This document shows, piece by piece, positions 5,269 through 23,927 of a DNA stretch of 64,000 nucleotides. The notes beneath the pieces are model-generated. The model was not told the origin of the DNA. It worked only from the letters and a program-made list of their open reading frames with translations, and did not search any database. This DNA is from Escherichia coli (lineage in GTDB: Bacteria > Pseudomonadota > Gammaproteobacteria > Enterobacterales > Enterobacteriaceae). The stretch is from NCBI GenBank assembly GCA_025544715.1, contig GCA_025544715.1_4109.2; one strand, given 5' to 3'. Numbering within the stretch: the stretch's first letter is position 1; each line of letters starts with the position of its first letter. The position numbers were made by a program, and so were the translations under genes.

Positions 5269-6057
5269 TTAAATGTTAGTAGTATAGTACTTGATTTCGT
5301 TTTGAATTGCAAGTTCTATTTGTTTATTGAAAAGAATTCCAAACTCTTTGATTGATTCACAATCGAATTCAATAGAAAAAGTATACTCTGGTACACGTAC
5401 ATTGTCAATACCCAAATACTCTTTTATGTAAATTTTAATGAGTTCACATAGTGCAGTACTAAGACATTGAATTTCAAAATGTTTTGCACCTTTGTCAAAA
5501 TACTTGAATGCATCAATATCACCTACAATAAAACTATTCTTTAATGTAGTGAATAGGTTCTCAGGAAACACGGTAATAGGTGACATTGATTTAAGAATGT
5601 ATGTATCTTTTGCATTCTTAATGTACTCAATGAAGCAGTAGTTAACGTCAGGCTCGATTGAACGATCCGCGTTATGATACCAGTGTTTAAACTCACTGTA
5701 TTCAGCAAACTTATGCTGGCGTAATGCGTTACAATCTTCACACAGTGCAGTCATGTTCTCTTTATCATTACCGCCCTGAAGACAGTCCAGTACGTTATGG
5801 TCTAACGTCATGCGTACAAGACGTTTCCCTTTAAGTACATAAGGTCTGAATTTATAACGTTCTTTAGTACTGTGCTTGTGTAAAGTGAATACTACATTGG
5901 ATTCACCACAACAATCACATTTAAAGCCATCACGTGACATTACATGAATAAGTTTGCGTGTGTTCGGTCCAAACTCAGATTTAGTAATTTTATCCACAAT
6001 TTCTGATGGTTGGTAATATTTTGAATTCCGTTGAATCAGTTCATCGATAGTGCTCAT
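5269..6057 (-). CDS. HNH endonuclease domain protein (262 aa)
   Basis: Cys-x2-Cys pair plus DHNVLDCLQGGNDKENMTALCEDCN, an HNH-type motif. Confidence 0.55.
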   Translation of the reverse strand: MSTIDELIQRNSKYYQPSEIVDKITKSEFGPNTRKLIHVMSRDGFKCDCCGESNVVFTLHKHSTKERYKFRPYVLKGKRLVRMTLDHNVLDCLQGGNDKENMTALCEDCNALRQHKFAEYSEFKHWYHNADRSIEPDVNYCFIEYIKNAKDTYILKSMSPITVFPENLFTTLKNSFIVGDIDAFKYFDKGAKHFEIQCLSTALCELIKIYIKEYLGIDNVRVPEYTFSIEFDCESIKEFGILFNKQIELAIQNEIKYYTTNI

Positions 6058-6288
6058 TTACATTATTCCTTCTATGCAACAACCAAGAATTACTTTTTTA
6101 ACTTCAACAACTCGTACCAAATAGAATCCATTTGAAAAGTTAAAACTATACATTTGTACTAAGGCATCTGCTTCAGATTTCGCACGTATACATGATAGAT
6201 AAATTTCACGTATATCACCATCTAACGATACTTGTTTCTCTGCATCGATGACAATAGAACGAATCTCAAAACGAACACCATAACTCAT
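6058..6288 (-). CDS. hypothetical protein (76 aa)
   Basis: ORF track. Confidence 0.35.
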   Translation of the reverse strand: MSYGVRFEIRSIVIDAEKQVSLDGDIREIYLSCIRAKSEADALVQMYSFNFSNGFYLVRVVEVKKVILGCCIEGIM

Positions 6289-6494
6289 TGAGTTTGTCCT
6301 ACAATAAGCTTTGTGTTAGTATTGCTATTGTAACACCACATACTTTCTTTACTAACTGTCATAAGTGACATGTGGTTTACTTGATCATAAGTACTGTCAC
6401 GTACAGAAAAACATTGGTTCATTGAGTTCATTGGGGTTATTTGTACACCGGAATTAACAGAGAAAGCGACTACTAAAAAGATTACTGAATTCAT
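6285..6494 (-). CDS. hypothetical protein (69 aa)
   Basis: ORF track; AAGGAA RBS and promoter upstream. Confidence 0.35.
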   Translation of the reverse strand: MNSVIFLVVAFSVNSGVQITPMNSMNQCFSVRDSTYDQVNHMSLMTVSKESMWCYNSNTNTKLIVGQTQ

Positions 6495-6558
6495 TGGATA
6501 TTCCTTAATGGTTAATCATCCATCTCTTCGAGATGTCTGTTCGCTTCTAATACTACGT

Positions 6559-6587
6559 ATTCTACGCGAATGATTAATAAATGTCAA
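6559..6587 (-). promoter_or_regulatory. sigma70-like promoter (TTGACA-17-TAGAAT)
   Basis: minus-strand reading; leader contains hairpin CATCTCgaaGAGATG. Confidence 0.45.
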
Positions 6588-7110
6588 GGACTTTTAATAT
6601 TGACGGGATTTGAGGAAGGGATTTTTCTTCCCCCCCACAAGGAGGGAAATTTGACGCTGATGGTATCAGAGCTATTGCATTGAAGATTACTCATAACGAG
6701 TGCGAAAGCGGGTCATCCTGTTTCTCTCTACTTCAGTTTCATATGACGGTCTACACTTTTAAACATAGTGTATCTTCATTAAGTATCTATGCAATCAAAT
6801 ACTTAATGTGAGTACTCAAATTCTGGACGCAACTTTCCTGTACAAAATTTGATAACTCTCCCTTAGATAATTCGTAAGGTGTTATCCTTATATGTCTATC
6901 AAGGAACCACCAGCTATCCTAACGTGGTTCTTTATACAGCCGCATTGCCGTGAGGGGTTCAAACTATGCCCACATCTAACGGGTTTCTTTTGCTGTTCGC
7001 ACTGTCGGACTGCTCAACTGCCCTCTACGTTTTCGAGTGGATCAGGTACATGAATATCATGCCAACAGAATTGTACAAGATAATTATATCACAAACTTTT
7101 ACTTCATCCC

Positions 7111-7145
7111 ATAAAAAAAGGTTGGCATAAGCCAACCCTTTTTCT
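7111..7145 (-). terminator. intrinsic terminator
   Basis: GGTTGGC-ataa-GCCAACC hairpin followed by U7 on minus strand, directly after the sigma gene stop. Confidence 0.6.
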
Positions 7146-8111
7146 TTAGAAATCTTCGTATTCGTACCCTTTTGCAAGTACTAGCTTCTTAAGCTTTTGC
7201 ATAGCTTCACTGTACTTTCGATGTATTGATGAACGGGATTTAACATATTTTCCATTATCATCAACAAAACCATTATCAGCAATCTCACGAAGCGTTTCAG
7301 GTTCATATTCACCTAGACCATGAACACGCTGGATAATCTCACGTTCTTTAGTACTCAATTCGTTAGTCAGTTCATTGATAGCATAACGTAAAGGTGCACG
7401 AATACTATCAACATTGAGGTTAAAATCAGAAGCAGGTGAATGAATAATGTCACCTAGTGTACCATCTGTAACACCGTCTAATGGTGCATCCAGTGAAGTG
7501 TATTCGCTTTGAAATAACAAACAATTATTAACATGCTGAATCTCAATCCCAGTACCCTCTGAGATTATTTCAGGAGTTGGGCGAACACCATGTTTACGCA
7601 TATATTCTTGGCAGAATCTTTTTACTTTGATCTTATGAACACTCATATAACGTGGGAAGTGTACCATATAGTTAGCGTCAGAACTTTCGTTATAAACTGT
7701 CATGTAAATACTAGAAGAAGCATAGGTAATGAACTTCACATTCTTATTAAGATCAAAGGTTTTTAGTGCTCTCATGAACCCCTCAACACCATATGAAATC
7801 TTATCTTCAAATGGGATATAACAAGTACATTTACTTGCTACATCAATAATAAGTCCATAATTGTAACGAACTAACAGTTCAGTGTTTTTCTTTACATTGA
7901 TACCAGCTTGAATATCACGAATTAGATCTTCATTGGTAACATTTTGTGGTCGCTTAAGTGTAATATTATATTTGAAACTGCTTTGTACTTTACCTTCATT
8001 TTCATCTTTATCTTCAACGAAATCTAAGGCTTCTAGTGTGTTGACTTCTTCATTAGCAAAACATTCATCCAGAACTTCTTCGGCAATTGTATTTAAATCA
8101 AGCTTTTTCAC
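7146..8111 (-). CDS. RNA polymerase sigma factor, sigma-70 family (321 aa)
   Basis: region 2-like GFMRALKTFDLNKNVKFITYASSSI and region 4-like LSTKEREIIQRVHGLGEYEPETLREIAD. Confidence 0.6.
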   Translation of the reverse strand: MKKLDLNTIAEEVLDECFANEEVNTLEALDFVEDKDENEGKVQSSFKYNITLKRPQNVTNEDLIRDIQAGINVKKNTELLVRYNYGLIIDVASKCTCYIPFEDKISYGVEGFMRALKTFDLNKNVKFITYASSSIYMTVYNESSDANYMVHFPRYMSVHKIKVKRFCQEYMRKHGVRPTPEIISEGTGIEIQHVNNCLLFQSEYTSLDAPLDGVTDGTLGDIIHSPASDFNLNVDSIRAPLRYAINELTNELSTKEREIIQRVHGLGEYEPETLREIADNGFVDDNGKYVKSRSSIHRKYSEAMQKLKKLVLAKGYEYEDF

Positions 8112-21897: not shown

Positions 21898-22391
<494 letters not shown>

Positions 22392-23530: not shown

Positions 23531-23790
<260 letters not shown>

Positions 23791-23794
23791 TATT

Positions 23795-23910
<116 letters not shown>

Positions 23911-23927
23911 ATGTGATGTCCCATTAT

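Follow-up and report, generated by a model that had tools for sequence, protein, structure and literature searches.

ROOL and GOLLD RNAs typically occur in phages and prophages, and their genes often lie close to those of tRNAs. RNase P RNA and transfer-messenger RNA (tmRNA) are stable pseudoknotted RNAs made from tRNA-like promoters, and tmRNA genes occur in some large phages. Together with OLE, ROOL and GOLLD are known as 'ornate' large bacterial and phage RNAs of unknown biochemical function, and they have been the subject of a cryo-electron microscopy (cryo-EM) study (PMC12286853). In the related jumbo phage PA5oct, RNA-seq defined four long non-coding RNAs (lncRNAs) of 236–619 nt that lack open reading frames (ORFs) (PMC7318152, Table 1), two of which make up 1–5% of phage reads across three time points (PMC7318152). 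Here we describe a locus in a 64,000-nt stretch of Escherichia coli DNA (assembly GCA_025544715.1, contig GCA_025544715.1_4109.2; hereafter the window), where a gap of about 520 bp separates a sigma-factor gene from the promoter of the next gene. Our analysis of the sequence strongly supports the conclusion that this gap is a free-standing gene for a non-coding RNA of ~480 nt on the minus strand (6598..7076), as judged by nhmmer family matches, an alignment of its homologues (A3), structure statistics and strand tests.

Like ROOL, GOLLD and OLE, the RNA is several hundred nucleotides long and ORF-less, with many helices and pseudoknots and with conserved unpaired purines. Like ROOL and GOLLD it is phage- and prophage-borne, and its promoter is of a type in common with phage tRNA genes. 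It differs from all three in having no sequence or structure match in Rfam, in its enterobacterial jumbo-phage hosts, and in being present as three to five paralogues rather than as a single copy. With RNase P RNA and tmRNA it shares a stable-RNA size of 350–500 nt, two or more pseudoknots and the tRNA-gene kind of promoter, but it lacks the GGAAAGUCC (CR-I) motif, an acceptor stem formed from its ends and a tag reading frame. Short motif resemblances to E. coli M1 RNA, e.g. ACAGAGCAACCCGC, we take to be a lead only.

Searches for known RNA families gave no assignment. The Rfam 15 covariance models, which cover ROOL, GOLLD, OLE, RNase P, tmRNA, group I/II introns and 6S, returned only terminator-like partial matches of 13–22 bits across window positions 6000–7700 (cmscan, E≤10), and at E≤1 neither eight divergent phage copies nor six copies of bacterial or metagenomic type-2 origin gave a match on the element. 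An Rfam scan was among the checks proposed by an earlier sequence-only reading of the window, and it found no family on the element. ARAGORN identified six tRNAs at 21.7–24.7 kb in the whole window and no tRNA or tmRNA in 6500–7150. RNase P, tmRNA and group I/II introns, which had been considered on motif and topology resemblances, were rejected as neither the covariance models nor ARAGORN supported them. Plus-strand motifs of hammerhead-like form (CUGANGA...GAAA) were also rejected, as their helix arrangement does not fit and Rfam gave no match. The RNA is not described in the genome papers on phAPEC6, CBB and Sharanji, in a comparative survey of jumbo phages or in the RNA-discovery papers that we searched; the family, absent from Rfam and from this literature, is new. 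A viral screen that included IMG/VR produced 10,006 candidate structured RNAs (PMC10690425), and its text mentions neither jumbo phages nor the present locus and its features. Fragments of the present RNA may be among the unnamed IMG/VR candidates of that screen. Comparison of our family profiles with the PA5oct lncRNAs using nhmmer revealed no significant similarity (best E=0.19), and homology was not established. The 3' end of PA5oct ncRNA004 (L081 1150–1240) does carry a C-run/G-run hairpin, UUCCUUCCC-AAAC-GGGGAGGAA, that is similar to the hairpin P12 described below. The PA5oct lncRNAs therefore show only that such phages express abundant long non-coding RNAs.

Covariation provides the strongest evidence for an RNA product. 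The alignment A3 contains 32 non-redundant copies in RNA orientation and yielded a structure model of 87 pairs in 15 helices, two pseudoknots included. In this model 90.0% of paired cells can pair, compared with 72.4 ± 0.5% in 500 shuffled controls, and 65 of the 87 pairs have changes on both sides (47.3 ± 2.7 in the shuffles). The covariation score is 0.476 versus 0.171, and for each of the three measures none of the 500 shuffles reached the observed value. When the 3' partners were slid by 1–3 columns, pairing fell to 37–45% and covariation to 0.07–0.15. The pseudoknots PK1 and PK2 are 99.6% and 100% paired, and helix P9 is 99.4% paired. An earlier alignment of 19 copies had already contained 36 pairs with compensatory changes. 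A structured RNA was one of three options raised in the sequence-only reading, and the compensatory changes, together with two nearly perfectly paired pseudoknots, bear it out; by this generic test, the case for a structured non-coding RNA is strongly supported.

The same reading had described positions 6588–7110 as free of ORFs on both strands and richer in GC than the surrounding DNA, and both descriptions hold. From the stop codon of the RpoD-like sigma-factor ORF (7146..8111, minus strand) to the next ORF (6285..6494, minus strand), there is no credible ORF on either strand, the longest being 36–54 amino acids (aa). The GC content of 200-nt windows over 6500–7100 is 0.385–0.445, compared with ~0.30–0.36 in neighboring genes. 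The C7 run (6632–6638) and the GGAGGG (6643–6648) that had been singled out are the two arms of the conserved hairpin P12. Both boundaries were also located. The sigma-factor ORF ends at a bidirectional intrinsic terminator (7113..7147; stem 7120–7137, 7 pairs, with T/A runs on both sides), which forms the upstream boundary of the RNA gene, and a sigma-70-type promoter for ORF 6285..6494 lies at 6559..6587 on the minus strand (TTGACA-17-TAGAAT, 11/12 matches). This second promoter is within the gap but outside the RNA family, and it is not kept in the other three paralogues of the jumbo coliphage PBECO4. The genes around the element are on the minus strand, and the RNA runs in the same direction as the sigma-factor gene.

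None of the ORFs in the gap (≤54 aa, both strands) matched PHROGs at E<0.05. Insertions and deletions occur at hairpin insertion sites and are not codon-sized, and conservation tracks the helices rather than any reading frame. Given the small ORFs, the lack of PHROGs matches and conservation along base-paired columns, we conclude that the element is not coding. The decayed gene that had been considered is thus rejected, and the proposed search for frameshifted protein homology gave no protein-family match. The third option, a regulatory region, is correct in so far as the gap holds both the RNA's own promoter and that of the next gene, but the element itself is an RNA gene. Its strand, the promoter within the gap and its multi-copy nature are additions to the earlier description.

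Comparison with related phages, also proposed earlier, revealed a conserved multi-copy family in RaK2-like jumbo phages. Region 6588–7112 is 100% identical to PBECO4, an Asteriusvirus. Using blastn, we found the segment in 71 phage records, all of them ~350-kb RaK2-like jumbo phages that carry it in 3–5 places each. Their hosts are Escherichia, Salmonella, Klebsiella, Erwinia, Serratia, Yersinia, Cronobacter and Pectobacterium, with one 'Xanthomonas' phage. The segment is kept at 65–100% identity in these records, so the gap that had been called conspicuous is not due to chance. Most of the records leave the region unannotated, and some automated annotations place small hypothetical proteins there. 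An nhmmer search of the whole PBECO4 genome returned exactly four copies in one orientation, at ~38, 94, 195 and 305 kb. Copy A (~195 kb) is the window copy; copy B (304.9 kb) is located between baseplate genes and endonuclease VII, with its neighbors on the other strand (convergent); copies C and D are at 93.7 kb and 38.0 kb. The four copies are mutually 65–75% identical, with invariant blocks split by variable hairpin insertions, and their flanking genes differ at all four loci. Across the family the RNA is ~450–560 nt long, and RaK2-like genomes hold three to five diverged paralogues. All copies share one orientation within each genome sampled (the whole genome for PBECO4, and 2–4 sampled copies in eight other genomes). 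As the paralogues are only 65–75% identical and yet orthologues are kept across genera, the duplications are old and under purifying selection.

Pattern scans and nhmmer located further copies in 121Q, GAP32, CBB, Serratia phage BF, Yersinia phage fHe-Yen9-04 and many metagenomic jumbo contigs, IMG/VR included. RaK2 carries a divergent full-length copy in a syntenic gap adjoining dam, the position of copy C. In a metagenomic 'type 2' group the 3' double-pseudoknot domain, P12 and both of the X boxes described below are kept and the 5' domain is different, indicating that the 3' domain is the core of the molecule. One type-2 copy follows T4-like portal and baseplate-hub genes, the same synteny as PBECO4 copy B, and the RNA is therefore old in this viral lineage. 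Two other regions of ~2 kb in PBECO4 (NC_027364.1) have no annotated coding sequence, at 151710–153706 (L005 1710–3706) and at 343864–346145 (L007 41465–43746); the RNA family is not present in either.

Strand-neutral counts were ambiguous, and the strand was assigned from features that differ between the two orientations. In 32/32 copies the minus strand forms the more stable version of hairpin P7, with a mean of -12.3 versus -6.1 kcal/mol (Wilcoxon p=8e-7). The final model contains 42 G-U against 2 A-C combinations on the minus strand at helix positions that lie between Watson-Crick pairs. The conserved unpaired blocks and junctions are purine-rich on this strand, where one copy also has a GAAA tetraloop, and with minus as the RNA strand three of the four PBECO4 copies are co-directional with their neighbors. 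Together the stability of P7, the G-U excess, the promoter, a hairpin with a U6 run and the purine-rich loops indicate the minus strand. A putative independent transcription unit on the minus strand is supported by its promoter and by strand-specific pairing. A functional plus-strand RNA, which would be antisense to the flanking genes, was initially favored because RNAalifold gives 77 pairs for that strand, many of them G-U, at a slightly better energy (-160.8 versus -154.5). Two helices, at A2 columns 135–138/625–628 (H1) and GAUAG/CUAUC, moreover tolerate A/G changes on the plus strand only. However, these helices, the main source of the G-U signal, lack double compensatory changes and are not preserved in the RaK2 homologue, and H1 and H2 (A2 columns 144–148/442–446) were discarded on these grounds. 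A plus-strand RNA would also require 42 A-C mismatches versus 2 G-U at Watson-Crick-flanked helix positions, a weaker P7 in every copy and pyrimidine-rich conserved loops, and the plus strand has no conserved promoter or terminator. This orientation was ruled out on the G-U pairs of P7, P9 and P1, the promoter and the loop composition, and we give it little credence.

Directly upstream of the RNA on the minus strand, all 32 copies have a promoter of the form TG(G/A)(A/G)AC(A/G)-N16-17-TGnTATAAT. In the window the extended -10 element, TGATATAAT, is located at 7083..7091 (minus strand), and its TATA.T is invariant in 32/32 copies. The -35-like element TGGGAT (7106..7111, minus strand) occupies the position of the family consensus TG(G/A)(A/G)AC(A/G) (A3 columns 57–63). 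Promoter scans locate homologous sites in copies L021 and L007. One subgroup of copies has TGAAACG as its -35, which is the divergent RpoD-like promoter described for phages CBB and GAP32 (PMC5259590). The promoter type recurs in the window as TGGGACA-N17-TGTGATATAAT (23895–23923, minus strand), directly upstream of a tRNA cluster composed of tRNA-Ser (23884..23795) and tRNA-Arg (23790..23714). A promoter type common to the RNA and this cluster is in keeping with expression as a stable RNA. Another tRNA cluster, at 21988, has a canonical TTGACT-N17-TGaTATAAT instead.

From the promoter we infer a 5' end at ~7076, and from the point where conservation stops, after box X2, a 3' end at ~6598. In copies L003 (PBECO4 copy C), L028, L029, L031, L032 and L072, a strong GC hairpin followed by U6-7 comes right after the -10, so that the transcript would start inside or just before a terminator-like hairpin. 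This hairpin may serve the genes upstream as an overlapping terminator, act as an attenuator or protect the 5' end. Beyond the other end of the RNA, just 3' of it and 30–60 nt past X2, many non-Asteriusvirus copies (e.g. L026, L008, L014 and L019) have a semi-conserved UGAAUUGAG and then GUACAAACGAAGUG (plus-strand CACTTCGTTTGTAC...CTCAATTCA). This motif could mark a site of processing, stand in for a terminator or serve as the promoter of the next gene. Three genes past the RNA in the window, a 262-aa ORF (5269–6057, minus strand) contains a CxxC...CxxC pattern suggestive of a zinc-finger or HNH-like protein.

The structure model divides the RNA into a 5' domain and a more conserved 3' half; all coordinates that follow refer to the minus strand. 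P1 (7002..7068) pairs the leader CUGUUGG (7068–7062) with CCGACAG (7008–7002) and has double changes in 7/8 pairs (helix 1). It encloses the hairpins P1a (7061–7049) and P2 (7039–7021), and helices 2 and 3 of this region have double changes in 5/5 and 3/5 pairs, respectively. P3 (6996–6992 with 6940–6936; helix 4) is 100% paired with 4/5 pairs covarying, and P3a (6982–6979 with 6951–6948; helix 5) is 100% paired and nearly invariant. The arm that contains them (6936..6996) has the conserved internal loops AGAAGAAACCCGUUAG and CACGGCAAUGCGGC. The hairpin P4 (6904..6930; helix 6) is 95% paired and shows double changes in 6/6 pairs. It is followed by a segment (6858..6900) composed of the conserved junction GAUAGACAUAUA, the hairpin P5 (6890–6887 with 6878–6875; helix 7) and an AAGGGAG block (6864–6858) that is invariant in A3. 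P6 (6809..6857) is a variable insertion site, where the window copy holds a ~30-nt module, GUACA..GUUGCGUCCA.AAUUU. This module, with the consensus GUACAAUAUAGAUCCGUCCAAAAUUU, usually forms the 3' arm and loop of a hairpin and is present or absent at two insertion sites (A3 columns ~465–500 and ~630–662) depending on the copy; carriers include the window (6809–6857), L002, L008, L026, L040 and others. Such a distribution suggests a portable unit with a structural or binding role.

The most conserved core of the RNA is its 3' half, which consists of P7–P10 with PK1 and PK2, and then X1, P12 and X2. The loop of hairpin P7 (6776..6808), AUUGCAU (6795–6789), pairs with AUGCAAU (6680–6674) to form PK1 (helix 9), with double changes in 6/7 pairs. 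The core double-pseudoknot domain (6674..6774) comprises helices 10–13, which are 94–100% paired and have 3–4 double-change pairs each. It contains P8 (6774–6769 with 6755–6749), P9 (6735–6731 with 6685–6681), P10 (6701–6698 with 6692–6689) and PK2, in which GUCAU (6747–6743) pairs with AUGAC (6716–6712) and which is interleaved with P9 and P10. Inside the knot lie the invariant purine-rich strand UAGAGAGAAAC (6730–6720) and the block CCCGCUUUCG (6712–6703). In the tail the order from 5' to 3' is X1, an optional P11, P12 and X2. P11 is a terminator-like hairpin with a U6 run, found on the minus strand in most copies and absent from the window copy. P12 (6624..6647; helix 15) reads UCCCUCC-UUGU-GGGGGGGA in RNA, and its U-G/C-G alternation pairs only on the minus strand.

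Boxes X1 (CAGCGUCAAA, 6650..6659; A3 columns ~700–707) and X2 (UCCCGUCAAU, 6599..6608; A3 columns ~790–797) are direct repeats ~50–90 nt apart, X2 being the last conserved block of the RNA. Within a given RNA the 6–7-nt core of X1 is always the same as that of X2, and the two vary in concert. The core pairs seen are CGUCAA/CGUCAA and CGUCAG/CGUCAG, with CGACAA/CGACAA in Serratia sp. 2723, CUUCAAG twice in RaK2 and ACGAAG twice in type 2. The cores thus vary from lineage to lineage, and even paralogues within a single genome can differ (L016 versus L021). No consistent site within the RNA is complementary to the X boxes. This pattern suggests that one reader contacts both boxes, which would then serve as recognition sites for one duplicated or dimeric partner. 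Complementarity of the X boxes to 16S rRNA segments is presumably coincidence.

Three bacterial genomes also contain full-length copies, each at the margin of an integrated element. The Serratia fonticola chromosome has, in order, a serine recombinase, two ParB-like genes, the RNA, rof and tilS. Between the element and tilS there are two tandem ORFs for the Rho inhibitor Rof (PF07073; L041 4775–5038 and 5227–5490), which may have arisen by duplication during integration at this site. The copy in Serratia sp. 2723 comes directly after a large serine recombinase, next to dapE and arsC, and in an Enterobacteriaceae metagenome-assembled genome the RNA lies between the thiM operon, with its thiamine pyrophosphate (TPP) riboswitch, and a CI-like repressor. 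Among complete E. coli genomes, 2/5426 carry a copy. In E. coli LR-29-1 (L079, NZ_AP027515.1 ~3473–3484 kb) the RNA occupies an unannotated 1.4-kb gap in a ~10-kb island beside ffs. The other genes of this island encode a tyrosine integrase interrupted by IS3, a small serine recombinase, DuOB, DUF488 and DUF4326, a make-up that resembles a defence island. The plasmid collection contained no match to the RNA family.

Considering the locus as a whole, we think it probable that the RNA is stable and acts in trans as a folded particle rather than as a cis-regulatory leader. Host RNA polymerase would make the RNA in abundance, in the manner of a tRNA, and the folded particle could serve a conserved partner as scaffold or decoy, work as a ribozyme, or self-assemble as ROOL and GOLLD do. 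A role in trans is suggested by how elaborate and conserved the fold is, by its invariant junctions rich in purines and by a tRNA-type promoter of its own, as well as by the retention of several old paralogues with no fixed neighboring gene. Several observations weigh against this interpretation. No partner protein that would lend direct support to a trans mechanism is conserved beside the RNA gene. Between the window copy and the next gene there is no intrinsic terminator, making read-through or processing possible, and where P11 is present it lies upstream of the conserved P12 and X2, an awkward position if it were an efficient terminator. Whole-molecule folding energy does not separate the strands, RNAalifold also yields a good-looking fold for the opposite strand because most helices are Watson-Crick, and the single-sequence folding z of -1.56 is not exceptional. 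A bolder and more tentative proposal, made by analogy, is that the RNA represents a new 'ornate' class of jumbo T4-like phages. It would have a double-pseudoknot catalytic or assembly core, paralogues working together or on different targets, and programmable X1 and X2 boxes, and it would have been borrowed by bacterial islands in phage conflicts. The paralogues might form a hetero-oligomeric RNA particle, or a ribozyme or ribonucleoprotein (RNP) in tRNA, translation or genome metabolism.

Other explanations account for parts of these data. One is that the copies mark origins of the 350-kb genome, where an R-loop transcript primes leading-strand synthesis as at T4 oriF/oriG or in ColE1 RNA II, and that mobile islands with a copy are replicated by an infecting jumbo phage. 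The dispersal of the copies along PBECO4 (~38, 94, 195 and 305 kb) in one orientation, the co-orientation in every other genome sampled, the promoter of each copy, a run of G6-7 that follows a U-run hairpin, the iteron-like X boxes (direct repeats identical within an element) and the single copies in small integrative islands would all be consistent with origins. The RNA also resembles ColE1 RNA II and the T4 oriF/oriG transcripts in being promoter-driven and several hundred nucleotides long with a G-rich segment. For RNA II the fold matters as well, and the T4 origins likewise occupy several dispersed loci per genome. There is, however, no homology to either, and the architecture described here is much more complex and more strongly conserved. 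A double-pseudoknot fold of 15 helices with invariant purine-rich junctions is more than known origin transcripts require, and the covariation reflects selection on RNA pairing along the whole molecule. Furthermore, the copies have neither an AT-rich unwinding element nor an initiator gene conserved alongside, and X-box variants that differ between paralogues (L016 versus L021) are ill-suited to a single initiator protein. We therefore consider an origin or primer RNA unlikely. We assign a similarly low likelihood to a special case of action in trans, in which the RNA is a decoy, inhibitor or antidote in conflicts between phage and host or phage and satellite. It might sequester a host nuclease or defence sensor, for example, or copies in islands might interfere with an infecting jumbo phage. 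The bacterial copies do sit at the integrase or repressor end of their elements, the usual place of accessory or defence cargo, the LR-29-1 island beside ffs also holds the DuOB, DUF4326 and DUF488 genes, and the RNA is rare and patchy in bacteria. Its promoter type is also that of phage tRNAs, which are thought to counter tRNA-targeting defences. However, no defence gene is consistently adjacent, and conservation across the clade with synteny (portal/baseplate-hub for copy B, dam for copy C) looks more like a core function than like rapidly evolving cargo for conflicts.

Regulation of a neighbor, either as a cis-acting leader or as an antisense RNA to the sigma factor or the small downstream ORFs, might be suspected from the window copy, which adjoins the sigma-factor gene and is followed by the next ORF without an intervening terminator. 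But the four PBECO4 paralogues have unrelated neighbors, copy B is convergent with its own, the bacterial copies have yet other neighbors and the next gene has its own promoter, making this explanation very improbable. Least likely of all is a decayed coding gene, or a DNA repeat without RNA function such as a MITE-like element or recombination site. The small hypothetical proteins annotated over the region in some records and the multi-copy nature of the segment could suggest either. There is, however, no conserved ORF and no protein-family match, orthologues of paralogues that are 65–75% identical are kept across genera, and covariation of paired columns, including those of two pseudoknots, is explained by neither DNA repeats nor coding; we regard this possibility as refuted.

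Large, highly structured RNAs with conserved tertiary-looking cores are rare, and in the past such RNAs proved to be ribozymes or RNP scaffolds and, in recent work, self-assembling RNA cages. In many deposited genomes the four loci are blank or lie under spurious hypothetical proteins. While most orphan RNA classes are known from metagenomes only, this RNA is carried by E. coli phages that can be cultivated (121Q, PBECO4, phAPEC6, Sharanji and others), so that genetics, RNA-seq, probing and cryo-EM are immediately feasible. Its retention in multiple copies, deep synteny, tRNA-type promoter and presence in bacterial islands point to a role in an important step of jumbo-phage biology.

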